A stretch of DNA of 63,772 nt, filler included, from Diploschistes diacapsis (GCA_023645945.1; 24 parts of 24 records of this genome joined end to end with filler, not necessarily neighbours in it); one strand, 5' to 3'; positions 16,696-56,625 are shown, counted from the whole stretch's first letter. Numbers and translations: made by a program. The notes: generated from the sequence alone by a model not told the origin.

Positions 16696-19165
16696 GTTGG
16701 GGGATCAAGGAGGACGCTCGAAGATATAGGCAAGTGAAGACGGAGTTTGCTTTCGCATGGGCAAAGCCAAACGATCAAGCTCTTTTTGAGGCTCCGTCAG
16801 AGTTCATCTCTGCGACGCTGTAGGGCCGACTGGCAGCAGAGTAAAGGAGAGACTGTTAGTTGGACATGCCTCGGTAGGCTGATGGAAATGAGGGGTTGAT
16901 AGTCGAAGTGCACGTTCAAAGGGCTTTAAGATGGGATGCGATATACTTCGGAGCGCCACCAATCAGATTCCTCAGCAAGATCAGTTCATGCCTTGCCATT
17001 TAGGGTTAGGGTAAAGACATGATGGCGACGGGCCACACACATCCCAACGTGAAACGTCAGCTTAATTCTTCACGAGGTCGAGAACGCTGACATGTTCTCC
17101 TCAGCTATCATAGGTGCTGGGTCGACAAGCTTAGACATGGCTTTCTACCTGCTCACTGCGTTAGGAACCACACCAACTCAAAGATGTACTCGATCTTGTC
17201 AAACCTGCTCATACGAGGTTATGACTCCTCAGCTGCCTTGCTGTACACGCATATGAAATAGCCCACATGAACTCATAGAGGCAATCAGTGCCCCTCCCTT
17301 GCATAGCAGATTCCAGCTGACTGAAAGACTCGAGTTCGATACCGCTTGGTAACTGGTTACCGCGGAAAGCTTATGGTGCGGAGCGTATTGCAGAAAATAC
17401 AACGAAGTGTCAATGATGGCTCGATAATGGATGCCGGTTACTCCGCTTGAAGATTCTCAGTGACTCAAGCAGCTCAATACCGCTATTGAGAGCTTTCCCC
17501 CGGTTTTCGCTCCTCGTGCTTGATGCGGACTTGTCCATCCTTCCACGAAGATGGCTTCCCATACTCCACGGCTATGACTTTCCCGACTGGCTGTGTTCTA
17601 TGGGTGGACTTGACAGGTCTTACAGACCGCAGTTGGATGCTGTGACATCAAGTCAACCTCTTTTGTTCCGCTGCCGCGAATACGACAATGCTGTTGCCAT
17701 AAGACATTCGTCTTGGCTGGACGACCTCGCGCAAGCCACAACTATCTTCACGGTTAGACCAGGTAACGCCTGTCGGTAACCAAATCCTTGCTCGGACGTC
17801 TACAGTTCCCTAGTTTTCTTCGAGAATGATACGTCAAGCTGCAGTGCGGCGACTTTTCGTTAGGAAATTGCTTGCACTAAGCACAGGACCTTGTCAGCTT
17901 GACCTCTGAAGCGGCAAACTCGCGATAGAAGGAGCTCAATACGAGGGTTTTTAGCTCGAGGTTCGGCTGTCCTACGGCTGCAGACTTCCGAAAATCTCGA
18001 TCTTGCATTTCACGCACAGTACCTATACGGAGAATTCATTAATTGCCGCTATTAACAGCTAAGATCATCTCACTTGTGCCAAATGACTGCAAGTACCTTC
18101 CTAGCTATGAGTAGTAATGCTCCACAAAACGGTACATTTATGACGCTTTTTCATTGTACGACTTTCATGGATAACCCCAATTGATCCGTTTGGGTGAGAG
18201 CCATGAACATCTCTCCACAAGCTTAGGAGTCTGCCAATGGCGATGAATGGCGGCTCAGTCTCTTATTTTCAGAACTTCAAAAACATCGTCTCCTCTACCC
18301 CTTGTGTTTGACGTGCAGAGAATCCAAGTACGTGATCTGTAATGCAAATTTCGGTGGGTATCTTTACCTAACTTCTGATTTGGATATAAAGATTAGAAAG
18401 GACGATCTTGTATAACATATGCCAGGGCAAGTTTGATCGCTCTGCAGAGCTGCAGGTTGCCAAACTCAGCGGTAGCCTTGCAGCAGAACACCTGTTACAC
18501 ATGCTAAGCTCGTTGCGGGCGAGGATCACTGCTTTGATTGAAACAACCGTGCTACTTTCGTGTCACAAGCCACATTGGTATTTTGAACGACCCCTTTTCG
18601 TCTTGTTTGTCACTCGCAATGGTGGATGCACAACGTTACACTCATCTAGTTTTCGGTGTCGTGTACAAAATTGGTATACCCGGTTGTGTTCTAAGATTGA
18701 TGTAATGGAGAAGCTCCGCTTTCCCTCATGCGACAACCCTGGGCTAGAGCAAGGATTGACTTCCAGGTTCAGAGCATACAAAGGCCGTTGAGCTTTTGGC
18801 AGGTATGCAGGAAGCCAGAATACACTATGACTGCTTCCATTCCAACGGGACCGTGAAGTGATGTGGGTACTTTCACTGGTACTTTGGAGTTAGTGCTACA
18901 AAACAGGGGAAACTGACACACAAATGTCCGCCTCGAGAGTCAAGGCCATCGGATCATTTGCAGCGTGTGAGCCGTTGGAAATTGAGTACAACGCTCAGCT
19001 ATCTTGATGTATATACAATACTAAACTGGAGCTTGGCAGCTCCAGTTGCTGTGTTTGATATAAAGACGTAGTCGTTGTCCTCCAACTCTATCTGTCACGC
19101 TTTCAAGCAACTCTGATCGCAGGTCCTCTCTGGTCATTCAGGTGTAAGGGCGAGTCCTCCATACG

Positions 19166-31947: not shown

Positions 31948-32940
31948 GGCCCCAGCAGACCCCACCTCAGCAAAAAATCCACCACGACGAGCGCGCAGTT
32001 GGGCTTGAAGCCACCGTCCGCCAACTCCCTCCTGACGCGGTCCAGGCCCATGAGTTCGAAGCCGGCCACCTCGTCGTCGCCCGGCGTCGGCACCTGGTTC
32101 CCGTCGCATTTTGCGCCCCGATCGGCGGCGGCGTCGGCACCGGCGTGGCGCAGCTCCAGGTCCCAGACGAACTGCACCTCGGGCTGCAGCAGCGCCTCCT
32201 CGCCGCCGCGCTGCGCGCGCGCGTCGCGCAGGTGCAGGTAGCTGACGGTGCCGGCGGGCCGCGCGCGCGCGCGCACGAAGCCGGCGGCCAGCGACGCCTC
32301 CTCGGCCGCTTCGCGCGCCAGGCTGGCCAGCGGCGTCTCGCCCGCCGCGATCCCGCCCGCCACCGTGTTGTCCAGCAGCCGCGGGTAGGTGGCTTTGCCG
32401 GCGGCCCGGCGCGGGATCCACAGCTTCAGCTCGAGCTCGGGCTCGCGCGCCGGAGCCGCACCTGGCGCTCGGGTGGGCAGAGCGGCGGTGGTGGTGGTGG
32501 TGGTCGTGGTCGTGGGATTTGGGATGCTGGGGGGGCACCGGGGCACCCAGGTGTAGCAGTTGCAGTGCACGCCCCACGTCTCGACGCCGAACAGCGCCGC
32601 GCCCGCGCGCTCCAGCTCGACGCCGCGCCCCGGCACGTCGACGATCGGGTACAGCTCGTCGCGCCACGCGCCGGGGCCGCTGAGCACGACGAAGGTCTGC
32701 TGGGCGCGCGCGTGCGCGAGCTGGCGCGCGAGGATGGCGGATTCGCTGAGCGTCGGGTGGAATGGGATCGTGACCGTGCGCTCGGCATGGGAGATTCGGA
32801 AGAGGGGGGTTGGAGCGGAGGATGTGCTGGTGGTGGATGGGAGGGAGAGCCAGGGCATGCGCTCGACGACAAAGGGCGGGATCAGACCGAAGGTGCGCAG
32901 GGTGGTGCAGGTGGAGTCGTAGCTCGTTAGGAGGGCGAAG
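31948..32940 (-). CDS. Nudix hydrolase (YJR142W/Nudix-20-like), partial
   Basis: WRDELYP, ERAGAALFGVETWGVHCN, LWIPRRAAGKATYPRLLDNTVAGG, Nudix box GETPLASLAREAAEEASL, FKPNCALVVVDFLLRWG; both ends cut by the contig. Confidence 0.9.
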
Positions 32941-33139
32941 AGGTAGTAGGTTGATGTTAGCGAGCGGTAAGCGGCGGTGTTGGGGGGTGGAAAACTGAAG
33001 TTGTTAGCACTGGATGCGGAGAGGAAGTTGGTGGGGTGGNNNNNNNNNNNNNNNNNNNNNNNNNNNNNNNNNNNNNNNNNNNNTTAATTAATTAANNNNN
33101 NNNNNNNNNNNNNNNNNNNNNNNNNNNNNNNNNNNNNNN

Positions 33140-39449: not shown

Positions 39450-39766
39450 ATTTCATCCTTTACAACGTTATTATTAAAGGACTCGATCTAGTCCAAAAGA
39501 TATCCAGTTAGACTACATAAACATGCCGAATAATTCCGCCTGTGGGAGAGTGTTGAACAGACAGGGAGAAGGTATGGCTAAAAATATAACTAAATTCTAG
39601 AAGGAGGTTCAGTTTAACTAAACCTTCTGGAATTCCAACTAGACCGAATAAGGAATAGTGTAAATAATAGGGCTTAACGTATCCCACGATAATAACAGTC
39701 TGTAAAGCAGGATAAACTCCTAGATAAGACCTCTAGACTTCAATATATCCATTAAGTTGCCAAACA
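39450..39766 (+). mobile_element. Copia 3' end with PPT and LTR family C
   Basis: TGTGGGAGAG PPT, then TGTTGAACAG...CCAAACA; homologous to 6180-6500. Confidence 0.75.
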
Positions 39767-40347
39767 GAAGGCTTTAAAAAAAGAACTATTATTAATATTA
39801 AAATCTAACTCGTTTATATTATAAATATATTCGGGCGCGTATTGTTTTTTATTATATTAAATTATTATTATATCGAATTATCGTTATATAATCTTGTAAT
39901 TTATCGTATTAAATTTATTCGACTCGATTTATCTCGTTTAAATATTAATAATTTCGGGAAATCGTTTATGAAATCGTGATATTTAATGTTTATTGATAAG
40001 TTAAAGATTTATAATTATAATTTTTAAATTCGAATCGAATCGAATACGTTCGCGTCGAATCTTTTTAGTTATTTCTATTATATCCTTGGTGGGAGATGGG
40101 TTAGGTTTAGGTCAGAAAGTGAAGGACTTAGAATTTTTCAAGATTGCGGAACCCATATCAGCGCGCAAATGCGCACTCAGTTTATACATGCAATCAATCA
40201 GTAAACCCCATAAAAGTGGTATCTAGAGCAAGCGCATCATGCGTATTTTCATTTAATCAACTTTGCACATCTTTTACAACGAGTTTGGGTTATGCGCGTG
40301 CATTGCAAGTTGAAAATCGCGATGATTCGACGTTCCCAATCGTAAAG

Positions 40348-41683
40348 CCAATCAGATCAATTATAAACGGTGACACACCGAGATACATCCTTTAACCAAT
40401 CATACACATTATAAACGGTGACTCGTACTCCTCGCCCGAATCCACCAATCATCTTCATTATAAACGGTGACATTGGACAATTCATCTTCCTATTCTTTCA
40501 ATGCACAGAAATCCATCTGTATTCTAATCCAAACCTTTTGCATTGAACACCCCACGCTGCTTATCATATATCTTAAATTATCGTTTCTTCCACTAGACTG
40601 CGAGCATAGTCAGATACTGAATCTATCATTCCGCCATGAATAAAAACTTCCTGAATCATCTTTTCAAACCGCACTATGTAATCTAAGGAATGGTCCCTTC
40701 GACCCAAATGCCATTGCTCCTTACTTATTATCAATATAAGCCTACATTATCTAAATACACAAGAAGATATGTAATAGAAACAGACCAATTCGACAACTAA
40801 ACAATCTATCAAATCCAACAATGCATCAGCAATACCCTCCCAGTAAATTATCTAGCCCGATCAACGTAGAACTGAACCCGCAAATAAACTCTCCCGTCCA
40901 TCTAGATCAGCAAATTCAATGGAAACCAAAGTCACTACAATATCCTAAATAACCAGGCCTATTGATCCGGATCAACAAACTGGTCTACTGGCCATACGAA
41001 CCACATAATACCGACCCAAAGGTCTGCTTACCGATCAGACCTTTTATATCCAGAATCTTTAATATGGCAGATTGTTTTACGCCGGTATCATACCAAATGC
41101 ATTCGCCAAGATCCCCATCACGTTACTGACCAATCAAATTGATTATAAACGGTGACACCCACTCAGGTCTAGTAATTCAGCAATAAACGCTACGCATTAA
41201 ACCCAAACTGCCGTTGAACCTGACTACAATTAAACCAGATCCGGCAAAGATTTTGCAGCGAAGCATAACGCGTACAGCTTACCATATTCTTAATTAATCC
41301 AGCCTGCCTGTCTAGATCAACAAACTCGATAGAAAGCTGTTGGGCCAACGATCCATACATAACAAAACCTGTCGAATCTGATCAGAACACTGAAAAGGGA
41401 TCTCAAATGCTCAGATCATAATGATGTATAAACAGGCTTACTGATCTGGATCAGTAAGGGGACCTAGAAGTCGTAAGAACATTGTAGCACTCATGTATAG
41501 AGTCGCAAGAGTAGAGTTACAGTTATATTCTAGATCCCAGGCTGGCTTGCTGATCCACATCAGCAAGCAACCCTTATAGCCATACTGATAATTGAATCCC
41601 CATCGATCAATTCGTATCTTTTACTAGTCAAGATCCCCATTAAAATTCAATATCAACCAATCAGATTAATTATAAACGGTGAC
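40348..41683 (+). repeat. Five direct repeats CCAATCA-N5-ATTATAAACGGTGAC
   Basis: Copies start at 40348, 40396, 40445, 41130 and 41657; the 7-bp and 15-bp boxes are invariant. Confidence 0.95.
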
Positions 41684-41866
41684 GATAGCGCTTAGTCAGT
41701 TGATCCGAGATAATTTACCAAAAATGCCAAGCTTGTCCCCGAGATTTTCACTGTTATATTCCAAAATTCAAGCTTCAGCATTCAAACAAACCTGATCTTT
41801 TTTTCCCACCTTACTGTTTCCAGCCCAACATCATAAACCATCCACAGTTTTATCAGTTTTATCAGT

Positions 41867-44800
41867 ATGGGCCGCAAACCCAAATCCAAAGAAGAAACTC
41901 GTGCACGGAAGGCTCAAAACCAACGTGACCTTCGTGCGAGAAACAGAAATACAGATCCACATACAGAAGTTATTGACCCCAATACACACGAAGAGGTTGT
42001 AAATTGGGATACGCCCGAAGACCTACCCTTAGCCGAATCATCGTCGAGTGCAACAGTAAGAACCTTGATCGCACCCAGATTGGCCCCATTCCCTGTACGA
42101 AGACCAGCGACTCGATCCCAATCCCGTGAATTAGAACAATATTCTCACGCCCCAATTCCCTCCCCATCATCACCTATACCCGAAATCAATCCCATCTTCT
42201 ATCGTGACCAGCCCAGCGGGGATGGAGCCGATCCTACTCTCCAACGTTCTGTCACAATCATTTCTTCTGATAGCGAGGATTATGAAAGCAGCATCAACGA
42301 GCCCGGTTCGTCATATACAACAGAACTTCGCACCCAACCAAACGACCTAGAAGCTTTGGAAAATTCTCTGCAAGAGTTGAACATTCGCAAGACCCCCGAT
42401 ACTGTTCCCAGCAGGCAGCAGCAAGAGACGGGCTTACCCCCAGAATCCACTACAAACAGCGATACTGCTTACACCTATAACAGCCCTTCGCTGACCCCCC
42501 TCGATCATCCTTCTCGACCCACTCTTGATCACCGACGACCGTCATTGAACCCGGAAGGCCCCGAGCCGGGTTCAGCCGCGCATGAGCCGTTACCGGAGGC
42601 CCATAATATCCCACCCGAGTTGCAAACACCCTTGCTCGTTAATGTCCTTCCTTACGACAACTCGGCGACGGCATCAGATTCCGACATCTCAATCGACGAT
42701 CCCGCCGCGGAATCAGTATCCGGCCCCACAGAACTCGAGGGCATTCACCGCATGAACGATGCACATGATTTCTGGTGTTACTGCGAAAATAACTACTCGG
42801 ACCCGTCCGGTATACCAATCATAGAGCCCGACGGTTCCACCAATCGAGAAGCTTTCACTAGTTTCAGCACCATTGGACAACGGTGGCAAGCAAGCTTTGA
42901 CCACTATGCTTCAGAAACTGCAGGGTCGAGACCACTTGCTTCAGAAGGTACATTTTTGAGACAAGCCAGCAACAACTATGGATATAACATCCAATGGAAC
43001 GATCTACTGTCCGATCAGTACAAAGGATCTTCTCTGCCTCCTCTCAGCACACGTTTAATACAAGAAGAGGCCGCTAGAATAATCCTATCCAGATTTCCTA
43101 CAGGACCGTTCCTCCAGACCGAACACGACGTTGACAGCCATTTCTTCAGTCTTCGCACGCTCGCGGCCCACAAAGGCGGTTTCGAACTCAGCTACTACCC
43201 TAAGTTCAATCAACGCATTACTCAGAACCCTCGCATCAAATTCGGAGGCATCCTTATTCACAAACACAAACAATTGCGACTGGGCAAAGGCACATTGGCT
43301 TCGGGTTGCGGTTTTCAATGTCATATTATCTTCCCGGAAATGCCCGTCACCAAAACCCACGAGGTCGACCGGGTGGAAAAAACCTGGGATCTCGAGACGC
43401 ACCTGAGCAACTACGAACTCGGACACTTTATCGATGACATGGTATTACCGGCACTCCGGGAGAGCTACTCCGATGGTGTTTTACAACACCATCCAAGAAA
43501 TTTTGAAGAGGTGTTAACCAAGGCCCGAATTAAAAAGGAAACGGTCCTTAAAGAAGACAGTAATGCCTTGGAACCACGCTACCATTTACCCGAGCATGGG
43601 TTGGGTACGTTCTGGGGGGCGCTTCAACGGCGTTGCAACGAATTCGAAGAACGACAGGTTGATACCACTCGAATCCGCCGCTATCGAAATCCATTGTTAA
43701 TAGTATCCGGACATGACCTTAAACTCCATACAAAAAGCATGGATCAGCGTATTACTCGACAATTATATTTTGATCTCCTTGACCGAGGTTTCTATACCGA
43801 CGATGATCATGTCGTTCGTGATGACTGGTGGCTGGATGAAGGATGGGAACATTTTCCCACCAGCTCAGACGGCATTTCTTTCATTTTTAAAGCCTGTTGC
43901 GTTGACGCCTGGGCTGAGGCCTGGAAACCGAACACTGGAAATACAACGATCAAAAAACAAACCTTCCATTTCGCGGGACTCAAAGCCTTGGGTTCGATCT
44001 CGGTGGAACTCGGACAGCACAACGGGTTCCGAAAAAGCCAAAGCTGCCGCTTCGCCTATGGTAAAGCTTATAATTCCATCAAAGATCAGTTCACCACGCA
44101 GATGAAAAACAACCACCCCTTTGAACACCCCGCATTAACCCAGCTTGCTTTGGATCAAACCATTCTCGATCAGAAAGCGGCCAACAACGGGTTATTAACA
44201 GCGAGCGGTCAAGCCGGGAATCTAAAGGTCCAAAGAACGGCACTCGTCGCCATCCTTAAGCTAACGAAACAACGGCTCCGGGCCGCCCTTCGAGCGACCG
44301 TAGACACTAATTTTGGTATTAGGGGAGAGATGCGCAAACACGTCGATTCATACTTAACCGCCGAGTTTCTACCACCCGGGGACAAATACGACCTTCGCCC
44401 CATCCTTGAACAACTGGCCAAGGGCGAACACGGTAAGATCCAAAGCCACTACCGTAAAGATCGCAAAATAAGCTAATCCTGATTCTTAGACGCTGCGCAG
44501 CATCTCTCTTTCGTTATTATTCCCACTGATTTAATCAATCGCTTTCAGCAGGACCAGATTGACCGCTGGCTCCTCCCGATAGAGTATTTCGACGATCAGG
44601 CACGGCCACGTTCCACCCTGAAAGCTGTCGAGGTCGAGCAGCAGCGACAGAACAATCTCTCCCTGCAAATTGCGTTGAAGATCCTAAGGGCCATCACCTG
44701 CAGCGACCTTATGACCACGCTGCATTGTTCTCCACTCCTTTGGCGCGGGAATACAAAATGCTATCATTATAAAAATGTTGCCGATCGTGAAGAATGCACG

Positions 44801-46009
44801 CGTAAGCATAAAGGGCTGAATCTGGAAAATGCGTGGAAAACAACAGGCATACTTTGCCTTCCCCATCAAATCATGCGCTGGAATATCCCGGCCCTCACGG
44901 ATTCCCACGCAAGAATACTCCGGCCTCGTGCCCTGGATCCGCGCGGCAAACCCTGGCGGACGGTGATGCTCGACGCAACTGCTCGCAAGGAGGACCGAAC
45001 GCGGAGACACATGCGCAACCTAATCGTCAACGCGGGCAGCGACTGGCAGACGAACGACGCCATCACATCCATTCAGCACGCGAAGGAGGGGCAGGTAGAT
45101 CGTGTCAAAGTTCTAGAAACCCTGGCGCAGTTGCTTGTCCAGGCATACATCAGGGATGTCGTCGACCAGGTCCTCCTCAAACGCGCCTTGGAAGAGGAAG
45201 GAGCCGGGACAGGGCACCGCCAACGGATGCTCCTCCGGGAACAGCTTCGGCCGGACTTTGTCAACGGCCTCGAAGCGATGACGGTGACCCAACTTCGACC
45301 GCTGTGCAATGAGCCCTATATCATCTGTGTCCGGGCAATGCCGCGCCATGGAGTGTCCAAGTTCGACAACGACGGCACCTGGACGAAACGGTTGTACCAC
45401 CTTTTCGATGTCCAGCCGCGAGGGCAGGGCAAGGCCCCTGCCTGGGATAATTACCATTTCCGGCGGAGGACAAGGGACATTATGAACCTCATCCGCGAGG
45501 AGATTGGGCCTGATGTCGAAGACGCGTTCGCTCAACATACATTACCTCGTGTCGCCGCACAATTCATCTGGATAGCACCCGCATATGAAATGGATAAGTT
45601 CGCTCCTTTAGAGAAGCCGAGCAAGCACAATTCCGACATGACGCGGCAGGCCATCGGAGACCGCTCAACGCTGGAACGCACAAAGTGGATGGCGCCTACC
45701 TGGGGAGACTGGGTCAGTGCGGTAATGCGACTCCGGGCATCGGAGGTGCATCGCGATTGGGACAATAAAAGATGCCCGATGTTACCACCGAAGCTCGCCA
45801 AGCAACTATACCAGATGTATTCTATGCCACTGAAAGCCCGAGACACCGAACCCAAGGGAGGCCCTTATACCGAACCCTGGTGGCCATCCGTGGTCAAGCT
45901 GGGCGGCAAGTTGGTGCTGGCAAAGGCGTTCCAGGAGCAGGTGGAGGATTCCGATGAAGGATCTGTTGACAACGAATCAACCGACGATACTGACGAGATT
46001 GACGAATAG
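41867..46009 (+). CDS. Large hypothetical protein, ~1361 aa (disordered N-terminus plus a globular core of unknown function)
   Basis: ORFs 41867-44476 and 44675-46009 are in the same frame and join through a 57-nt GT-AG intron 44433-44489 (GCTAAT branch) that removes the stop. Confidence 0.85.
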
Positions 46010-48262
46010 CCCTGCAGCAAGTTAAAAAGGGAGGAGTCAATCAGTAGCTGCTGCGTTGCCCACCCGTTGCCCGTTTGCTGGACTTGGAGACTTGCCGTGC
46101 GAGCCCGGTAGCCGTGCTTGCTGATCTGGATCGACAGACAAGACGGGTTCGACAAAGCCACCCTGCCGCTCATCCCTGGTCGGGTCAGTTTACAGGATAG
46201 ATATTTTTTTCAGGAATTGTTTGTAGGATATCTTAACATCCCATTAAGCGGGTGCATTTCCCCGTTAATAAGATCGTGATTACAAGGCCGCTGCCCTTAA
46301 GGACCTGCCTTATATGGGTTTCAATAGTATCAACTGTACCCATGGGGAGGATAATGCCTAGCACTGTCAGCAACTTCAATATAGCGCGATCGGGTTTGAT
46401 CAGCACCCCAATCAGGGCTTTTGGGGCGAGCTTATTGATCTAGATCAGCAAGGCCACCTATCAGGAACGGTCTGTAAGTAAGAGATCCTTGCTGATCCGG
46501 ATCAATAAGGCCACGATAGGAGTCAACCAATTGACCATGGCCACGGCCCAGCCATAAATAGAATTTAAAACACCGTAAAACTAATCAGGCTAATTGTGGT
46601 ATTCAGTGTTTAATAACACGATCAGTTGGCCCAGGAACAGGATTAAGACAGTCAATGATTGAGCAGCATCGGGCCATATAAGGCCCAGCATTATAAAATT
46701 ATTCGCAATGTTAGGTGTTGTGGATGGCCATCCAGAAGTTAATTAGAGCAGTTTAGTTATTTAATCAACCTTTAATATGATGCTAAGTGAAATAACGCTG
46801 TTTATATGGATCGGTGTATCCTCCACGTGAGTTGGATTGAAAATGATATATTGTTAAAGTTATTTATATCGGTCTGATTAAATGTTTGCTTTTTCCTATT
46901 GTATGAATATGGGCATAGATCTTATTAATATACGAGTTGTTGTTTACGTGACTTCACCAATTTCATTATTAAAGTATGTATAAGAAAGTAGACCATGACG
47001 GGTAGAGCATTGGATCATATTAGCGTTGAGTGTAGCGACCGTGAGCGCTGCGAGTCTGGGGAAGAAATGTGTAAGACTGCGACACTCACATACAAGCAAA
47101 GTCAGATGAACTTCAAGTAGAGACTGAGAATGAACCCTTTGCCGCATATCTTGGACAGAAGATGCACTGGGCAGGACTTGAAGTGTATCAGCTTCACGTC
47201 GAGGCCGCGCAGCATGACTGGGAGAGTCGTGGGACAGGAAGCACTAGTAGAAAGGTCCAACACGCCCTTACTGATCAGGATCAGCAAGGCGGCCTAGGTC
47301 AGCGCTTGGTCCATGCACCTAGAGTATCGAGCTCGGATCCATGGTGATTGACACAACAACCGCACAAGGGTTGGTGGGTCGGATTCTTAAAGGCAGGACC
47401 CCGAGTATTTATTGAAGGATGAACTGCACCAGATAGTGTAGACCCTCATATCAATTAGTTTGCATCAATGCACCTATACTATGTGCTGGAGAGATGACCA
47501 TAATAATGTCATATGTGAGGTTCATGGATTTAAAAACAGCCACTTAACCATGCCTATACCCGAGCATAATTATAACCAGATGTATACACCCCAATGGCAC
47601 TATGCCAATCATACAATATAGAGCTTTTACTGAGAGATTATTAACATTGCTCTTGGTCATAAATAAAGGACACATGCCTGACCATGCACAGCAAATCATC
47701 CTCATAGCGCCTGTACTGAGATTACCACCATTGATCTTGTCTTCAAACGTCAAATTGTATGAGCAAACCAGCAAGCATGAGGGTCAATTACTATCTATGC
47801 CTACTGATCTGGATCAATAAGCTTTGTCCGCTGTGGTTGCTCGGCTAGGGCTTGTTCAGCAAGCTAACCGTTTTTGGCTGCTTTTTGCCAAGCTTTTAAG
47901 CCCCCTTTAACTTTCTGTGGTCCCAGAAGCATTGATACTGTCTTGTCTACACCTTTCGCAATCTCTCCATGTGTTAGACTATATCAAATCCAAATAACGT
48001 GTGCCTGACGTGCCACGAGGTGAGTCACCACTCAGCCCCGTAGGGCCGTGTGGATTATATATATCTTCCCCCCTCCCTCTTTTCTTCTTTTTTTTCATTT
48101 TGCTTCTTCAACTTTACATCTCCCCCTTGTTGCTCTTTTTGCTGTGGCTCCTGCCTTTGCCCTCGTCTCTCCTTGTCTCCGCGACCGCTTGCTGAACCAG
48201 ATCGGTAAGCGCATCTCCCGGCCTTTAGGAACCACTAACCTGCCTCTGACGGTTGGCAGTCC

Positions 48263-51200
48263 ATGAGCAGAGCTGCAATCACCATGTCTGATGCCGATGA
48301 CTCTTCGAATTTGTCTTCCTGCAGCGAACCCTCGGGTTCGCTCTCCCGCGGTGAGGGCGAGTCTGATGGGGGAGCTGCAGTTCTTGGCAATTTCCGGATG
48401 GTTAAGTTCAGTGGAAGCGGCGTGATCCTTGATGCCATTTACTGGGGTATATCACTCAAAAATCCCAAGAAGATGGACGACAACAACGCAAAAGCCGCGC
48501 TCGCCTCCTACCTGGGCCTGGCTGAGTATGGTGATCTGAACGACCTCTTCCAGGATGCTGGGCTTGCCTCCTTCTGTCAGGCAGCGCGTAATGAAAAGAG
48601 TAAGAAGTTTGGACTTGACATAACAAAGTTTCCCCCGGAGAAGATGGGATTCCTCCTTCAGCACCATCTCTACCCCATGAAGGATGCCCACCATTATCTC
48701 AGCAATGTCCCTATCCCTATCCCGGACGACCAGTACCCGGATTGGTTCAGCAAAATAACAAGCGAGGTTGCACTGTGCAAGTGAGTCAGCGAAGCTGGGG
48801 CGAAGTTGTGGTTTTGAATTTTCCATGCAATTTCTAACAGTGTGCGGTGGGCATGCCATCCACTGTTGTTCAGCGTTGCTTTTTCAAATTTATAATACAT
48901 GTTCTTTTCCTGTTTTCCTGCAACAGCCCCTTGTAACATTAAACTCGCCCAACGGCCAACAGTACCCTGTCCAGCCAACTTCCATGGATTCCCCTATAAG
49001 TGGCTCTCCACACGCAGCCCTACCGATCTGGATCACTAAGCACATTTTTTATGTTTCTAGAGTCCAAGTCCCCTGGGTAGGCAGCGATAGCCACCCTTGC
49101 TGATCCGGATCAATAAGCCCCATTCCATGTTTCTAGAGTTTAAGCCCCTTGGGTAGACAGCACTAGCCATCCTTGTTGATGTGGATCAGCAAGGGCGTCT
49201 AGTGCCGCGCCCGTAAGATTTCCGTCTCTTTCTGCGTTGATTATAGGGCCCACCTTGCCGCATCTGTGGCTGACTGTTTCAGGTATTGGTTGAACGTTCT
49301 TGCCCAGGCCTACCAACTCTACCAACTAAGACCTGATATCTTTGAGAAGAAGGCTCCATTGGACGTGCGTGTTGGTCATGTAAAGATTGAGGATCTTTGG
49401 CGGTGTATCTGCTTCATCACAGCCAGCGCTCGAACAACTGCCGGGAAACGTAAGCAGAATAAAACTCTCGAACCGGTGCAGTGGGAGAGGTTGTACGATG
49501 GTTCGTCCAGCCAGCAGTCGCATAGTTTGGCACCAGCAAGAGCCGGACACCGCTTGCCCAAGGACTTTGCATATCGCCAGGCTGGGGACCCATTGCCCTC
49601 AACAATCCCAGATGGAAAGGACCAGGCCTACTCTTTCGGTGAGCAGTTCTATGGGAAGAACGCTCAGGGCATGATCCAGATTGGGAATCGTCCACTTCCC
49701 TCTGCACTTGAATATCAATTGCTGCAGACCTATTTCCTCAGCAACACCAACGTCATTGTAAGGGGCGGGACCTCTGTGGATGAGGAGGCGATCCCAGCAT
49801 TCAAGGGTGTTAAGCTGGATGATCCAGCTCTGAACAACAACAACTCCCGTTTCGGTGAGGGTGTGAGACTTGCAGCAAATATGGAAGATGAAGGAAATGT
49901 AGATCCAACTAAACTACACGATGTCGACCTAACGGAGGTCGGGTAGGCGCCCTTGTTGATCCAGATCAGTAAGGGCATCTAGGGCTAACAAATGCAGAAA
50001 CTATGCATCAAACTCAATATCAGCTATCGCGCCTGACTATGAAGCCGCCTGCATCCGTCTTCAGTGTGGATATCCTAATCCCAAGATCTATAATACAGAA
50101 CTCAAGGACATGCAGCCCGCTGGCGTCACCTTCCTCATCGACCGCGTGATGGATGGCGTCGTCCCACTGACCAACTTGGCAGATGATTGCGGTTCCGGGA
50201 AGACGTTTACCATACTGCTCACCATAGACCGAATTAGCCGTCTTGGTCGTATGAAGACTATGCACCGGCCATCCATGATTGTGGTGCCTGCAACAATCCT
50301 TGTGACCTGGTTGCAGCAGATCAAGCAGCACTTCCCACAAAATCATTTTACTGTATACCGTTACTACCAGGGCTCAAAGTCACCGTTGGACAATCAGTAC
50401 GGTGTGCAAGGTGTTGATTCGCGCGAGACCCTCCTCAAAACTGCCAGAACCCTTGACCCCAAAGACTCCCAGACTTCACGCACTATCTTCATCACAAGCT
50501 ACCACACCCACAATGCCCGCCAAGGACCCCCGGAGCTTGATTTCAAATTCCTACTGCTCGTTGCCGACGAAGCCACCCAGGCCAAGAACACGCTTACCCA
50601 AACCAGCCAGAGTTTGCAGGAAATCCAAGCCGAACATGTCATATATAGTTCCGCCACGCCAATCCTCAACACTGCTAAGGATGCTTTGGGCTTCCTTGTT
50701 CTACTCAATCGACCCATGCACGCTCGCAACAAGGGACTTCGGAGTTTTATTGAAAAGTCACCCCCCAAACTCAATGACTACATGGTGAATGAGCAGTTGT
50801 ATCAGGAACGGGTCTCGGCTGGATTGAAGTACAGGGAATCCAGGATTAATGAACAGAATCGCGGGCTGATGGGGAAGGCCACCGATGCTGCCTTTGTTCG
50901 CCATGACCTACGGCTACTCGATCTCGATACAGTGGCAAAGTTCTTTCACTCGAACACTCTTACGGTAGATGAGGCGGAGCATATCCTGCATGTCGTCACT
51001 CGTATGACAACATTGAGGCGCACTTTTGGCAGCAAGATTGACAAGGGCTCAGCGTTCGAGGCCGGCACCAGGATCGCGATTCTTGGTGCTGGAATCCCCC
51101 CGACGCATGTCCATACTGTTGAGCTGGGCCAGAATGAGAACGAAAGGGACATGTTCATGAAGCATTACCACCTGATGTTTGAGCAGCGGCAGATGGGAAA

Positions 51201-52823
51201 GTCCAGGACGCAGGACGGTGCAGATGATGATAACACCCCTCATGTAAATCACACGGTTGAACGGGCCCTGCAGGTAGCAACATTTGATCCAAGCAACTGG
51301 ACGCTGGATGCCTTCATCGAAATGGCGAGCCAAATCCGCAAGGCGACCAAGGAGAAGGATGACATGGAGAAGGATCCCAGGCAAAAGAGCGTTCAAGACT
51401 ACCCCCTTCCCGAAGAATGGCTTCGTGATTTCGACATCGATGACTACACTCACGGCCTCCGGGCATATTTGCATCTCAAACGCAAGGAGCCTGGCTACAC
51501 CCCCCCTCTCTCGCGTGTGGATTGTGTGAAGGAGCTCACGGCAACATCTGCCAAGTTGAGGTACCTTGGCGCAAAGCTGCTACTACATAAGATGAACACC
51601 AAGAAGGTAAATGGAGAGGCGCTTCCCGATCCCCAGCGTGCAATTGCTTATTTCCAATGGCCCGTGGATCTCTACCTTGCCGAGGCTATGTGCAGCAACC
51701 TCGGTCTCAAGGTAAGCTTATTGATCCGGATCAGCAAGGCTGTCTACTGACTCTCCTTCAGGCCTACTCGATCCGTGGCGATCTTTCAACCGAAGCGCGG
51801 ATGGTATGCTGCAAGAAGTTCACTACTGATGAGAGTCCGGATGCGCCTGATGTGCTCCTAATACAGTCTTCCATTGGAGCATACGGACTCAACCTCCACG
51901 GCCTCTGCAATCATCTTTATGTCGTTGAGTTGCCACTGAACTATTATATCTTGATCCAGATTCTCGGCCGGCTACATCGAGAGGGGCAGCTGCTACCGCA
52001 ACATGTGGAGTTGATTACTGAGGACAGAACTTGGGACTATCATCTGCAATTTAACATTACCAGCAAGGCAATGCCCATCATAGCTGGGATGGAGGGCTTC
52101 ATCGCACCGTCGTCCGCCGAGGAGGTTCTGAACTGCGAAGAAGAGCACCAGAGGAAGCTGTGGGCCGTCGAGGAGACGATCCGCCGTCGTCTTGGCCAGG
52201 CTGAGTCAAGGGCCTACTGGAATGAAGCAAAGACCTTCAAAAAAAAATATTCATACACCGGAGCTCCTGACAGCCTAGGCCCGGTCCAGCGCCGTAGGTT
52301 GCAAAAGGAGGCGAGGGAGCGGGAGATCGAAGCCAAGAAGGATGTGTACCGCAAGGTAGAACGCGTTCGCAGTCAGCACGTGAAGGAGCTGGAACAGGAG
52401 CGAATGAATCGCCAAGCAGAGTCTCGGAGAAAGGCAAAGGAGACACGTAAGTGAAATTCCGGGCACTTTGATCTCTCCGCTAACTGTATCCAGGCCAAAG
52501 AAATACAGCATCCTCCACCAGTAGGTCTTTGGCAGGCTAAACGGACATCAAACATTAACAATGCTAATGTTTCTGCAGACTCCACACCCAACAAGAACGC
52601 CACGGCGCAGCCCGGTAAAGGCAAGGGAAAACGTCCGAGCAGTGAGTTACTGACTGCTTCCTCCTCAGACCCAGCTGATATGATAGGCACAACCAATCCT
52701 AACTTGGTCGATGAAGATGGTCAGAGTGATAATTCTACGCTCGGCGGTGAGGTTGGTGAAGGTTCGGCCCAGAAGAGGCCCAGAAGAAATAGAAAAGAGC
52801 CAAATCGCTACGGACAGGCCTGA
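48263..52823 (+). CDS. Divergent SNF2-family ATPase/helicase, multi-exon
   Basis: LADDCGSGKT (I), IVVPATILVTW (Ia), LLVADEAT (II), SATPILN (III), GLNL (V), QILGRLHREGQ (VI). Introns 49943-49997, 51712-51761, 52447-52493, 52521-52578 and 52642-52686 keep the frame to TGA at 52823. Exon structure between 48781 and 49246 is unresolved, so 48263-48784 may be a separate gene. Confidence 0.85.
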
Positions 52824-53249
52824 AGGTCCCGAACATGGCGGATGTGCAGGGGGGGTTGGGTCAACTTTGATTGAGATACCAGCATGGCGTTGGTGGCAGG
52901 ATGGCAGGGGTCGATCCCAGTATCTATCTAGACCAGTCACATCAATACATTGTTAACTCCTGGCCCCCGTGCATTGGGCATGGTGATTGGTGTCGGTACA
53001 TCTTGCCAATACGAGTCAATAGACCAGGAAGCTTAGGGTCCACGAAGAAAAGCTGCAGCCCTGGCCGGCCGTCTCACCGCGGTTTAGTCGTCTGGCAGGG
53101 GGTTGCAGCTTTCCTTCGTGGATTCGGCAAGGGGCTGCGGTTCGGTCCGGCTGGGAAGTGTTGTCGAGGTAAGTGGGCATCCATTGGATTCGCAATCATT
53201 CTTGTCTCACTCAAGCTTCCTTATGGCAGATGTTTAGGATCTTCCTTCC

Positions 53250-53372
53250 TTTTCATCTTCATCTTCCTCCATCTTCTTTCACCTTGCATCTTCATCCTCC
53301 ATCTTATTTATTCCTTCATCTTCATCTTTTATCCTCATCCTTCATCCTTTATCTTCATCCTTCTTTCGTCTT
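53250..53372 (+). repeat. Degenerate (TTCATC)n pyrimidine-rich tract
   Basis: Repeated TCTTCATC/TTCATCC units upstream of the exonuclease gene. Confidence 0.7.
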
Positions 53373-53551
53373 CACACTTACACTCTCCAGAGCCATAGTG
53401 CCATTTACGACACTTAAGTTCCGGGCCAAACTTTTCTCTGTCCTTTAATTCTCAGTAAGTCTTCCATCATCCGCTTAATAATCATTCTTCTGTAGCCAGG
53501 CTTACTGACCCGAGTCAGTAAGCCTCTCTACCAGTGCAAGTGCCCGCGAAG

Positions 53552-54823
53552 ATGTTAAAGTCTTATAACATACCGGTGGACTCGGACGCACAGTACGGCC
53601 TTAATGCACCCCTGCCACATAGATCATACAATCCTCTCGACCAGTTTGTTGGGATGTCGAGGGCAAAGTACTTTCCCTTCGCCACGGAGTTTGGTCTGCA
53701 GCAACTTTCAGCGGGTAGTGCATCAACAGTGACATCCGGCAACCCAGTGATCCGAGACGCCGTCTACTTCAGCATTGACTTTGAAACAACATGCCATCTG
53801 GCAGCGGACCCGGGCATGATCTGTGAGGTTGGACTGTCCTTCCTGGACAGTCGTCAAGTAAGAGGATTGGCGCCTGGCGACCGTGCTCAAAACTGGCGTC
53901 GGAAGGTTGACTCAGTGCACATACACATCGAGTCTGTCCCGCATGACCAATCCACCAAGCACGGGCACTACTGTTCATTGAGCAGGCACGTGTTCGCCTT
54001 CCATGTCTCGAAAAAGGTTAAGGACATCGAGGAGTTAAAGGTTGAGTTGAAACGGTTAGTTAATGATAAAGCCTTTGTGCGTGATACAAAGAAGGGCGAG
54101 CGACGCCATGTCGTGCTGATTGGATGGGACCTCGGGTTAGAGTTGAAATGGTTGAAAGAACTGAAACTGTTTCATTCGCTGCTTAAAGTTAATGCAGCAG
54201 ACCCCGGAGCAGAAGCCGGGCTTGAGCCTAGAATGAAACCCGCAACCGAGGCTGCAACGGCGCCTGGGGCAAAGCCCTCGTTCATTTTTCCTCCCAGTGA
54301 GTTATATACAGGCTTATTGATCCAGATCAGCAAGAACGCTTACACTCCTGCAGCGGTCCTTCCTTTTGGCGTGCAGGAGCTACTGGATGTGCAGGGACTG
54401 ACGTGGTGTCGGACGAAGGGTGGAAAGGGACAGCGATATAAGCTGGACAAGGCCGTTGCAAGATTGGGCATTTTTCCTTCCCGCAATCACCTTCGTCCCG
54501 GAGAAGATGAATGGGAACCTTGTCGTCTACTCCACAACTCTGGTAACGATGCAGCCGTCACTATGCATCTCTTCATGGCCATACCTCTCCTTACAGATGA
54601 CCAGCGTGCACAGACTCTCGGCGACGGAGCGGACCTCCCTCCTGGCCCTCGCATATACAAAATGGATGCGCTCCGGCGCAATCAGAAACTGTACGGGTAT
54701 CATCTCGCACATCTTGGTGATGACAAGCCCCGTGCAGATCCCCGTCTTTCGTCAGCTAAGCCAGTGGACATTGCTAATGATTCTCCTGCCGCCCAATCCA
54801 TCAAGCAAAAAGGCGAACACTGA
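53552..54823 (+). CDS. DEDDh 3'-5' exonuclease (Gfd2/YDR514C/QIP-like), ~404 aa
   Basis: YFSIDFET (ExoI), EVGLSFLDSR, VLIGWD...EL (ExoII), LLDVQ, LHNSGNDAAVT (ExoIII); probable in-frame 57-nt intron 54297-54353. Confidence 0.85.
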   Translation: MLKSYNIPVDSDAQYGLNAPLPHRSYNPLDQFVGMSRAKYFPFATEFGLQQLSAGSASTVTSGNPVIRDAVYFSIDFETTCHLAADPGMICEVGLSFLDSRQVRGLAPGDRAQNWRRKVDSVHIHIESVPHDQSTKHGHYCSLSRHVFAFHVSKKVKDIEELKVELKRLVNDKAFVRDTKKGERRHVVLIGWDLGLELKWLKELKLFHSLLKVNAADPGAEAGLEPRMKPATEAATAPGAKPSFIFPPSELYTGLLIQISKNAYTPAAVLPFGVQELLDVQGLTWCRTKGGKGQRYKLDKAVARLGIFPSRNHLRPGEDEWEPCRLLHNSGNDAAVTMHLFMAIPLLTDDQRAQTLGDGADLPPGPRIYKMDALRRNQKLYGYHLAHLGDDKPRADPRLSSAKPVDIANDSPAAQSIKQKGEH

Positions 54824-55329
54824 ATATCTAATGAAAAGAAGGTTAGAGACTAGAAAGATCCATACTCGGAAAGATCTGTTAGATAGTAAATTGGGAGGGT
54901 ATTAAACATAATAGTATTAACACTCCCGTGGGCATTCTCAACTTTGGTGATTGAAATCGAGCCAACGTGACGTTGAAAATTACTGAATTTACATTGCCCC
55001 ACCCACCCAGCACTGCTATCATAAAACCTAATCTCAAATGCACCATGGTCAATCTTCCTAGACTATCCCAATGCCTTGAGTTACTCTTCAAACATTATCA
55101 TCCTTCCTCTCAAACCAAGTTACTAGATCATCAGCATGAGCGATCCTCCATTTCTTCATTGGGCCATATTTATTATCATTAGCTTTATCTTCTCGTCCAC
55201 CTTCGGGAGGATCATTTGACGATCTAACAAGCGTAAATATTAGCCGACGCATAGGGATATTAATGGGTAAAGAGGGTTGACATGCCTTTCTTGAACGGAC
55301 ATTCATCAACCGAAACGGTTGCTTACCGA

Positions 55330-56625
55330 TGTTACAAAGCTAATATAAGATTCAATAAGGTCCTGTGGCCAGTCTAAAGAAGTTTTAAGTTAATAAACAT
55401 CTGCCGCTTCTATTAATCTTATTATGATTTGGATAAAACGGCATACGGATAATGCGAAGAACATCGTCGAAGAGATTCTGTATATAAACATCCTGGAAAT
55501 TAGCTTTAAGCAAGTTAATCATACTATAAGAAACCTCGCGATATTGTTTTGGGGACTACTTTAATGAACAGTACGGAACCGACGTCAAATTCCAGAATAT
55601 CCGACCATAAGGACGTATTGTCTAAGATTGGCAAAGAAGCCTATGGATCAAGTATTGAGAAGTGAGTGTAGATTTGTAGCTAATCTAGTGCAAAAATCTA
55701 TTATATACAGCGGTTGCCAAGCAGCATCGTCATAGATGTTGCCTGCGGGCAGCGATGTCGGCCTGCCACAAGCAATCCACCAGCAACCCACATGACTACC
55801 ACAATCTCCCCGTCCAGCAACAACCTTATGCCCTCATAAGCATGTAGCTACCTTGTATCCTTGCCAAAAGCTGTCCCAAAGCATCCTCCTTTGGACCCAT
55901 CGTCCTGGACACAAACCTACGACAAAAGTGTCCACAAAAGCTCCAAAAGCAAAACAACTTTGGCTCTTTTTAAGACGTGAAAACCCTTGTAATCGTCCTC
56001 GATGTCCTTATCCATCCTACTCTTACTCTTGTTCTACCTCTGTAAGGTCTTCATGGTTCCTCTCGTAATCGGCGACGAGGTCTTTGGCATGCCGCAGTAG
56101 CTTCTTTGACGATATCCACATATACTCGCTAGCGTCATATCCCGTCCAACGTACTAAATACTCAGTCCTCCATCCTCTGCCTCTTCTTAATCTTCTCTTA
56201 GCCAGCAATCTGTCCACTTCGTAGTATCCCTCCTCCAAGTCGATAGTCATAGGCGGTAGAGGCAGGGGTCGGTGGTGGTAGAGGTCGTCGGCGGGGTCTG
56301 GGACAGGTTCTAGATGCGCTATGCTGATAATATCGTGTATCTTATAATGTTCGGGGAGATCCAGTCTGTAAACGAGTTAATTTATTCGTTTAAAAACTTT
56401 GAAAGAATTAGTAAATTATAGCAAAAGCTTCCTATTTAGAATTATAAACATCTTATATTCTTTATATAATCGTAATATCGCAAAATCCTTTTCGCGTATA
56501 AATAGAACGATTTAGGAATATTATTTATTTTTTATTTTAATTATATATAATATGTCTGTTAAGCTGTTTAATTTATATCTAATTTTTATAATAATTGATA
56601 TATATTATATATATAAGTTATAATG
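55330..56625 (-). mobile_element. 3' end of a chromoviral Ty3/Gypsy element: integrase tail, chromodomain, PPT and 3' LTR (~55330-55803)
   Basis: Chromodomain YEVDRLLAKRR...EYLVRWTGYDASEYMWI at 56023-56250; minus-strand PPT GGGGAGAT precedes TGTGGTAG; LTR ends ...TGTAACA. Confidence 0.8.

Follow-up and report, generated by a model that had tools for sequence, protein, structure and literature searches.

A 63.8-kb stretch of DNA from a lichen metagenome (Diploschistes diacapsis, GCA_023645945.1; the whole stretch analysed is called the window hereafter) contains, at positions 40083–55329, an island with three genes on the plus strand: a hallmark gene, g1, for a protein of 1361 aa, a gene for a divergent SNF2-type ATPase, and a gene for a DEDDh exonuclease (Table 1). 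The window as a whole alternates in composition, as is typical of an ascomycete with active repeat-induced point mutation (RIP), and the island is a non-RIPped segment with RIPped retroelement debris on both sides, the flanks being assessed by RIP indices and self-BLAST. The indices of the island were normal (GC 0.489; TpA/ApT 0.67; (CpA+TpG)/(ApC+GpT) 1.33) compared to those of the flanks (GC 0.315–0.316; TpA/ApT 1.07–1.11; (CpA+TpG)/(ApC+GpT) 0.63–0.71). An original prediction for this DNA had described the un-RIPped island, the three co-oriented genes, five direct repeats at the left end and about 16 private palindromes, each of which was recovered here. It had further proposed a selfish element of a different class; a conserved terminus, subterminal repeats, palindromes and RIP-degraded copies agree with that proposal, while the three-gene unit it assumed was not upheld.

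The island was delimited on the left by a terminal motif (40098–40131) that is shared with related loci and lies 15 nt inside the RIP boundary at 40083. Because the terminal motif of the related loci stands right there, the left coordinate of the island was taken as the true end of the element. On the right, a chromodomain-bearing, RIP-degraded reading frame occupies the minus strand beyond 55330, and this frame and the TG start at 55330 agree with the end of a Gypsy long terminal repeat (LTR).

Table 1. Features of the island and its right-hand neighbour, in window coordinates; exons and introns are as predicted
Feature	Position	Strand	Remarks
Left terminus, GGGTTAGG..TTTAGG (telomere-repeat-like) then GGACTTAG	40083..40131	+	RIP boundary; motif recurs in related loci
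Subterminal direct repeat copy 1, ACCAATCA-N5-ATTATAAACGGTGAC	40347..40382	+	D4
Subterminal direct repeat copy 2	40395..40430	+	D4
Subterminal direct repeat copy 3	40444..40479	+	D4
Palindrome copy 1 (CTTRYTGATCYRGATCARYAAG family)	40958..40979	.	upstream of g1
Subterminal direct repeat copy 4	41129..41164	+	D4
Palindrome copy 2	41437..41458	.	upstream of g1
Palindrome copy 3	41546..41567	.	upstream of g1
Subterminal direct repeat copy 5	41656..41691	+	D4
g1, hallmark gene, 1361 aa	41867..44432 + 44490..46009	+	predicted 57-nt intron 44433-44489
Palindrome copy 4	46117..46138	.	~110 nt past g1 stop
Palindrome copy 5	46431..46452	.	intergenic
Palindrome copy 6	46488..46509	.	intergenic
Palindrome copy 7	47267..47288	.	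intergenic
Palindrome copy 8	47800..47821	.	intergenic
Palindrome copy 9 (degenerate)	48189..48210	.	immediately 5' of SNF2 start codon
Divergent SNF2-type ATPase gene	48263..52454	+	predicted exons 48263-48780, 49283-49942, 49998-51711, 51762-52454
Palindrome copy 10	49019..49040	.	SNF2 intron 1
Palindrome copy 11	49096..49117	.	SNF2 intron 1, first unit of 76-nt tandem duplication
Palindrome copy 12	49172..49193	.	SNF2 intron 1, second duplication unit
Palindrome copy 13	49952..49973	.	takes up most of 55-nt SNF2 intron 2
Palindrome copy 14	51717..51738	.	50-nt SNF2 intron 3
Palindrome copy 15 (variant CTTACTGAC-CCGA-GTCAGTAAG)	53502..53523	.	DEDDh 5' leader
QIP/Gfd2-like DEDDh exonuclease gene	53552..54823	+	predicted in-frame 57-nt intron 54297-54353, contains palindrome
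Palindrome copy 16	54313..54334	.	predicted DEDDh intron
Retroelement start (TG...), RIP-degraded	55330..55339	-	cuts off or abuts island on right; outside element

The g1 protein family

The gene g1 defines an undescribed family of repeated fungal elements. Its single predicted intron, ordinary in kind, takes out two in-frame stops, and the resulting protein has a poorly conserved N-terminal region (residues 1 to ~400), a beta-rich core (~410–855), and a helical C-terminal half. No Pfam match was found for g1. A word-index protein search returned eight relatives, of which the named ones (Coniosporium apollinis, Letharia columbiana, and Xylographa parallela) are all annotated as ‘hypothetical’, while an exhaustive phmmer search recovered 257 representative clusters at E ≤ 1e-3 (151 at E ≤ 1e-10), with every match falling on residues ~416–830. 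The set scanned against Pfam comprised 49 distinct family members and the core of the window's own protein; no domain was detected in any of 28 members at E ≤ 1e-3 or in any of 35 sequences (34 members plus the window core) at E ≤ 10. Pattern scans found no relatives of g1 in viral contigs or in prokaryote genomes, and a fold search of BFVD with g1 gave no match. The viral-like nature suggested by the original prediction was not sustained by these searches. The first ~28 residues of the protein (41867–41950) are strongly basic. A bZIP identity for this N-terminus, which resembles a bZIP basic region, was rejected, as Pfam gave no match and the relatives lack the region.

Predicted fold and candidate active site of g1

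An AF2 model of the 446-aa g1 core, built from a 72-sequence alignment, reached a predicted local distance difference test score (pLDDT) of 89.7 and a predicted template-modelling score (pTM) of 0.87, and the C-terminal half was modelled as a helical domain (pLDDT 82.2) that had no structural match. Neither half of g1 matched a PDB entry at E ≤ 1e-3 with Foldseek, the second row for the core being the rolling-circle initiator 4cwe at a non-significant E of 0.37. With a second structure aligner, independent of Foldseek and applied to 48,161 chains, all three entries of the Rep_trans/MOBT family (PF02486; RepC/RepD of the pT181 family; 4CIJ, 4CWC, 4CWE) ranked first for the core. These were the best and the only whole-domain matches found, and they cover the entire core model and not a single hairpin. 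Proteins of this family serve bacterial plasmids, filamentous phages and conjugative elements. No RNase H-like chain was among the matches listed for either half, which does not exclude a DDE fold.

The catalytic domain of Rep_trans is a crescent beta-sheet of two 5-strand modules. Its active site consists of D46; R140/D142/A144/D146; T176/Y178/G180; R189/Y191/K193/E196; and R212/E214, with the catalytic tyrosine Y191 on a strand between basic residues and with D46, D142, and E214 serving as metal ligands, one on each of separate strands (PMC4797284); these residues were re-read in 14 pT181-family Reps from genome contigs. The g1 core is likewise predicted to form a crescent beta-sheet with conserved polar residues at alternate positions of several strands, and across the 72 sequences of the family five motifs occur in the order of the Rep_trans active-site residues (D / L-D-L-[AG]-x-[DE] / T-x-x-x-G / [RK]-x-Y-N..K..E / R-x-E). 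In core numbering, the first motif comprises D12 and D14 (71/71 for both; predicted strand 7–20) and the second, [VLI]-D248-[LFI]-[GA]250-x-E252, is nearly constant (D248, 72/72; G/A250, 72/72; E252, 64/72; predicted strand 240–255). The third, T296-x-x-x-G300, is looser (T296, 61/72; G300, 54/72), and is followed by K324-x-Y326-N327-x-x-K330-[ED]331 (K324, 60/72; Y326, 72/72; N327, 61/72; K330, 70/72; E/D331, 58/72) and by R410-x-E412-x-R414 (R410, 71/72; E412, 71/72; R414, 69/71; predicted strand 409–416). All motifs but the fourth fall entirely within predicted beta-strands and show i, i+2 spacing; in the fourth, Y326 ends the predicted strand 320–327 and K330/E331 are placed in the following helix. 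Some short strings are close between the two families, with L-D-L-A-F-D in Rep compared to L-D-L-G-x-E-D in g1, and R-I-Y-N-K-K-Q-E compared to K-A-Y-N-x-x-K-E.

The predicted fold and the motifs point to the acidic residues D12/D14, D248, and E412, predicted on separate strands within D-x-D, L-D-x-[GA]-x-E, and R-x-E, as candidate metal ligands, and to the invariant tyrosine of K-x-Y-N-x-x-K-[ED] as the candidate nucleophile (Y326 of the core; Tyr735 of the window protein). From the same evidence we infer a distant kinship of the g1 core with the rolling-circle initiators and relaxases of the Rep_trans (TBP-fold) superfamily, and g1 is probably a nuclease of the Rep_trans type.

Several results weigh against this assignment. 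Similarity between g1 and Rep_trans was undetectable at the sequence level: a profile search of PDB sequences with g1 gave nothing relevant, the g1 profile, when compared by hhalign with 14 pT181-family Reps, returned a probability of 0.13 (E 0.44; the Rep profile is narrow, comprising the pT181 family only at 49–100% identity) and against one RepC a probability of 0.2, and neither Rep_trans (PF02486) nor DUF7845 was matched by any of the 35 sequences at E ≤ 10. In the third motif, the g1 of the window has L296 and A298 in place of the family consensus. The two families also differ in form: the core is about twice the length of Rep_trans (446 vs ~200 aa) and carries in addition a 500-aa helical C-terminal half without a known fold, and the setting is different: g1 belongs to a chromosomal element of a eukaryotic host, with spliceosomal introns nearby and a superfamily 2 (SF2) partner helicase, whereas PcrA, the partner of Rep_trans, is of superfamily 1 (SF1). 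The archaeal relatives of Rep_trans are likewise reported without a Pfam or profile match to PF02486 (PMC13107129). From the same source, Rep-Arvir (DUF7845), the initiator family of archaeal viruses and plasmids, is kin to Rep_trans by structure only and has an invariant tyrosine, flanking essential acidic residues and a required hairpin, but unlike g1 it belongs to archaeal, episomal replicons.

Ends and repetition of related loci

A pattern scan of metagenome contigs held by JGI and ENA yielded 18 related loci (L001–L018). L001/L003, L002/L007, L014, and L017 have a common sequence from GTTGTAAGGGTTAG onward and, to the left of it, four unrelated flanks. Inside this left boundary lie GGGTTAGG, a short spacer, and GGAC(T/C)TAGCG(A/G)AAATTT, a motif pair that was found 1.8–2.7 kb upstream of g1 in L001/L002, L014, L009, and L013. 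A second GGACTTAG at L014:13566 was considered as a tandem copy and dropped, its surroundings being unlike the terminus. L014 and L017, which are two copies from one metagenome, also end at a common, sharply defined point on the right; a hairpin with a stem of 8 bp and a loop of 2 nt is located 10 nt from this end, the same hairpin geometry as at the 3' ends of Helitrons. This bounded form is ~5.7 kb in length and contains g1 only. No direct duplication of the target site was present in the flanks of either of the two copies with both ends (0/2), and no terminal inverted repeat was seen.

The bounded copies are heavily decayed. Of the 665 substitutions that L014 shows relative to L001, 499 are of the C>T or G>A kind, GC drops from 0.50 in L001 to 0.37 and 0.33 in L014 and L017, and every frame contains at least 83 stops; decay of this C>T/G>A type points to the effect of RIP on repeated DNA. 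The flanks of the L017 element (~17540 and ~70, minus strand) read GGATCTAGGGC and TAGATCC..., and together form a near-perfect palindrome, so that an inverted repeat may have been the insertion site of this copy, which would then occupy its centre.

The conserved left end is composed of telomere-repeat-like units (GGGTTAGG..TTAGG), and the left flank of L001/L003 consists of a tandem array derived from TTAGGG and ending in TTAGGGTTAGGG. Together with the linkage of a helicase gene to g1 (see below), these features would suit a subtelomeric helicase element, comparable to yeast Y' or the telomere-linked helicase regions of fungi, that spread between chromosome ends by recombination instead of transposition and left a stranded internal relic in the window. 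Several fungi are known to have families of telomere-linked helicase genes (PMC1635262; 10.1101/2024.02.27.582403). However, the left flanks of L002/L007, L014, L017, and the window are non-telomeric, the DNA next to the right end of L014/L017 is unrelated and non-telomeric, the CCCTAA-like stretch of that end is oriented wrongly for a chromosome end, three of the helicases are SNF2-type and not RecQ-type, and copies with g1 only exist. A subtelomeric origin is considered unlikely.

Direct repeats and palindromes

The left arm of the island contains five copies of a 36-nt unit between 40347 and 41691 (family D4), and analogous left-arm direct repeats are present in L001 (3 copies), L013 (7), and L014 (5). 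The palindrome core TGATCYRGATCA was matched 14 times with ≤1 mismatch, all within 40963–54329, compared to a chance expectation of 0.33, and none of 100 shuffles of the window reached 14. Two further degenerate copies (48189–48210 and 53502–53523) bring the total to 16, and the other non-RIPped part of the window (8–25 kb) held no copies. The full unit is approximately TAG-N5-CTTRYTGATCYRGATCARYAAG-N5-CTA. None of the 16 copies is exonic: three are upstream of g1, five between g1 and the SNF2 gene, one before the SNF2 start, five in SNF2 introns, one in the DEDDh leader, and one in the DEDDh intron. A 76-nt tandem duplication in SNF2 intron 1 (49051–49193, family D6, 81% identity) carries one palindrome in each unit. 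The occurrence of palindromes within introns may be explained because introns are the only intragenic places where a conserved cis-site spares the protein. Among the 32 half-sites, positions -8 and -7 vary by transitions only (A/G 14:14, T/C 13:16), which would produce G-T mismatches in a DNA hairpin or G-U pairs if the stem were RNA; either RIP-type mutation or the tolerance of an RNA stem could be responsible.

Each g1 lineage has its own palindrome of 20–40 bp in intergenic DNA, untranslated regions, and short introns, placed as in the window (5' of start codons, 3' of stops, and within short introns). GTTGAC-N4-GTCAAC occurs in 8, 6, 3, and 2 copies in L006, L012, L018, and L009, respectively, and in none of the other 15 loci or the window, and GCATGTT(A/G)ACATGC occurs in 4 copies in L001–3. 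The three copies in L018 are all within 2.3 kb (11338–13574) of a 21.2-kb locus. L006 and L012 have an orthologous SNF2 intron in which the palindrome arms have been preserved across ~70% DNA identity, although the four central bases and the remaining intron differ. The palindromes may be binding or nicking sites, and conserved arms around a variable centre would suit a protein dimer as well as the stem of a hairpin. In the REP/RAYT systems of bacteria a tyrosine nuclease gene is likewise found amid many short palindromes that vary by lineage; RAYTs, however, are HUH enzymes and REPs are distributed genome-wide, whereas the palindromes here are confined to the element as far as visible.

The palindromes could instead be independent of the element, as a tiny foldback repeat (a TA-flanked mini-MITE [miniature inverted-repeat transposable element], an introner-like sequence, or a symmetrical intron) that spreads locally. 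The window unit is bounded by TA, the L006 and L012 units also start and end with TA, and internally symmetrical, proliferating introns have been described in the Hypoxylaceae (PMC8469720). Six of the 16 copies lie in predicted coding-region introns, and the one in the DEDDh 5' leader would be a seventh intronic copy if that leader contains an intron, as it may. Such independence is nonetheless very unlikely, as the lineage-specific palindromes are confined to the g1/helicase neighbourhood (seen in L018 and in the window alike), the orthologous intron retains its arms, and most copies are intergenic. The narrower identity of an introner-like or symmetrical intron, in which the repeat unit is itself the intron and recurs in many unrelated genes, was rejected within the window on the low share of copies in predicted coding introns and on splice sites that lie partly outside the palindrome.

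The family is described by g1 with an optional helicase, a conserved left terminus, iteron-like left-arm repeats, and lineage-specific palindromes, a combination that is new as far as Pfam and literature searches show.

Helicase and exonuclease genes

The SNF2-type ATPase (Pfam SNF2-rel_dom, 7.6e-20; Helicase_C, 7.2e-6) is encoded by frames that join exactly once the introns 48781–49282, 49943–49997, and 51712–51761 are removed, each of which holds at least one palindrome. Exons 3 and 4 align without gaps to an unbroken SNF2 frame in L006, and the 3' end of the gene may be further spliced. An SF2 helicase gene, either SNF2-type or DEAD-type, adjoins g1 in four independent locus groups, or five with the window. 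The SNF2 gene is upstream of g1 in L006 and L012. At L018:9731–13681, a single open frame of 1317 aa combines a g1 core with an SNF2-like C-terminal lobe (Helicase_C, 1.3e-8) and has no N-terminal lobe; it looks like a natural fusion or deletion derivative in the gene order of the window. In L001–3, a 1583-aa OrsD+DEAD+Helicase_C frame is found downstream of g1, and in L002 (6787–11535) this frame, with an OrsD zinc-finger-like domain, DEAD/ResIII, and Helicase_C, is directly 3' of g1 and flanked by the L001-type palindrome. Chromatin remodelling at the element, or cruciform extrusion, may be the role of the SNF2-type motor.

The third gene of the island encodes a protein with a DEDDh_C domain (Pfam, 9e-21), the closest solved relative of which is the Neurospora QDE-2-interacting exonuclease, QIP (4wbq, 8.2e-10), and a word-index protein search with it returned only itself. 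The gene is absent from all 18 related g1 loci and is lineage-specific cargo. The conserved gene trio of the original prediction was therefore not found, the smallest bounded copies having g1 only and the helicase being SNF2- or DEAD-type by lineage.

Subterminal repeats are typical of many cut-and-paste elements, and both these repeats and the helicase genes beside g1, including the DEAD/Helicase_C protein of L001–3, could be expected of a cut-and-paste transposon from a named helicase-bearing superfamily (AcademH- or KolobokH-like), in which g1 would be an unrecognisably divergent DDE transposase. AcademH and KolobokH are low-copy fungal elements with a DEAD/Helicase_C helicase beside the mobility gene (PMC10799480), and g1 was set apart from them without a Repbase comparison. 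However, AcademH produces target-site duplications of 9–10 bp (PMC10045372), compared to none in both bounded copies, a terminal inverted repeat was not seen, and among the matches listed neither half of g1 gave any sign of a DDE fold, though this is no exclusion. The probability of a DDE-based element of this kind is judged to be low.

Interpretation as a mobile element

On balance, the island is best read as one largely intact copy of an undescribed Pezizomycotina mobile-element family with Helitron-like, nick-and-replicate movement that employs a non-HUH nuclease. More tentatively, the family may be a new class of eukaryotic rolling-circle transposon whose tyrosine nuclease is of the Rep_trans/TBP-fold type and, together with an SF2 helicase that was recruited, acts on lineage-specific hairpin sites retained even in the introns of the element.

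A sedentary origin for the island, as an accessory, non-mobile host gene neighbourhood in which g1 would be a DNA-binding regulator with a TBP fold, the palindromes its binding sites for co-regulating the neighbouring genes, and the repeat copies elsewhere decayed paralogues, was considered highly improbable. In its favour, the three window genes are intact with a read depth matching that of their own contigs (the only contigs compared), and selection by a DNA-binding dimer would be expected to conserve palindrome arms while leaving the centre free. Against this stand the sharp common ends beside unrelated flanks, the RIP-degraded duplicate copies, the terminal motif conserved in five lineages, and an invariant tyrosine and acidic strand motifs that look catalytic and not only DNA-binding.

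The reading as a nick-and-replicate element also has points to its detriment. The window copy has no detected right end, terminal inverted repeat, or empty site, and a short-word BLAST with the L014 right end and the window left end gave no match that would place its right end. The evidence for mobility comes from metagenome contigs, which can be chimeric at repeats, and all introns in the window genes are predictions from frames and splice signals. No helicase match was found in L009, L014, or L017, and SNF2-type ATPases are double-strand translocases and not strand-separating helicases. Lastly, contigs of the probable source run were aligned to the island at 80% likeness and depth was summed over contigs, a measure that is not a copy number; the coding parts reached a summed depth of ~390–470, compared to 379–430 for their own main contigs, and no second intact copy was visible.

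Among known elements, the nearest in mode of movement are Helitrons (HUH Y2 with a Pif1-like helicase) and Replitrons (HUH Y1), for which nicking and strand displacement are proposed and which are described with a subterminal hairpin near one end, a helicase of their own or a need for one, and no target-site duplication (PMC10288648). The g1 element is unlike Helitrons in having a predicted nuclease that is not of the HUH type, in the separation of the nuclease and the SF2 helicase (SNF2- or DEAD-type) into different genes, in its many internal palindromes instead of one terminal hairpin, and in its telomere-repeat-like left end. Helitron_like_N and PIF1 had no matches in 7 window frames and 40 related-locus frames, and the Starship captain domain DUF3435 was found neither in 7 island frames nor in 18 frames from the rest of the window, a scan that a captain beyond the 63.8-kb window would escape. 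As far as could be tested by DUF3435, Helitron_like_N/PIF1, and target-site duplications, this agrees with the earlier statement that the island is none of Starship, Helitron, AcademH, or KDZ/hAT/pogo.

A possible mechanism can be sketched, though with some doubt, by analogy with pT181 Rep/PcrA and Helitrons. The Rep_trans proteins act next to hairpin-forming inverted repeats with a helicase (PMC4797284), and the g1 element has palindromes and often a helicase neighbour. The g1 protein would bind the repeats and the palindromes, perhaps in the form of extruded hairpins or cruciforms. It would then cut a single strand, either at an element end or at a palindrome in extruded form, and hold the 5' phosphate covalently through Tyr735. 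The helicase of the element (SNF2-type here) or one of the host would then displace the strand, which would be copied and pasted elsewhere without a target-site duplication.

According to a 2026 paper, Rep_trans proteins had been regarded as confined to mobile elements of bacteria; the paper adds archaeal relatives by structure only (PMC13107129). A literature search by titles and abstracts found no Rep_trans-type elements in fungi or other eukaryotes, and novelty was judged without a comparison to Repbase or Dfam. If the assignment is true, g1 and its relatives would be the first members of the Rep_trans/TBP-fold superfamily in eukaryotes, which would extend the superfamily to all three domains. 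The eukaryotic elements thought to move by single-strand nicking (Helitrons and Replitrons) all use HUH nucleases, and with the g1 element eukaryotes would have a third route to mobility of the rolling-circle type, independent of these two. The finding gives a name to a family of at least 257 representative clusters that are now ‘hypothetical’, and the terminal motif and palindromes allow its copies to be detected. The retention of protein- or hairpin-type sites in short spliceosomal introns is unusual.

Read depth in the source metagenome and other observations

Summed depth across the island was uneven. The left arm (40312–41519) had a depth of 1020–1510, or 2.5–4 times that of the coding parts, the stretch 46956–48163 reached ~840, and 54808–55411 reached ~990, about 2.5 times the coding parts, with the main contig ending at 54982. 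Diverged, low-depth contigs covered 49917–50451 and 53107–53820. Two low-depth joints (49 and 72, compared to ~400) connect 39766 to 43867 and 44248 back to 40082, and put 382 nt of g1 next to the retroelement on one side and a left terminus on the other, which indicates a second, rearranged or partial copy in the sample, possibly in another strain. The depth pattern was read as one intact copy accompanied by fragments or deletion derivatives that retain the arms.

To the left of the terminus, ~315 nt of AT-rich DNA (39767–40082) lies between 40083 and the end of a very high-copy RIPped repeat; many contigs diverge past 39766, where summed depth rises to ~16,700, and the AT-rich segment could represent RIP leakage or an older fragment. 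A 1-kb block with a GC of 0.72 (32001–33000) is embedded in RIPped DNA, and its three frames of 145–152 aa had no Pfam match. The gene-bearing region at 8–25 kb contains AAA_22, CVNH, and short-chain dehydrogenase frames, with no DUF3435, and a perfect TTAGGGTTAGGG is present in it at 17000–17011.

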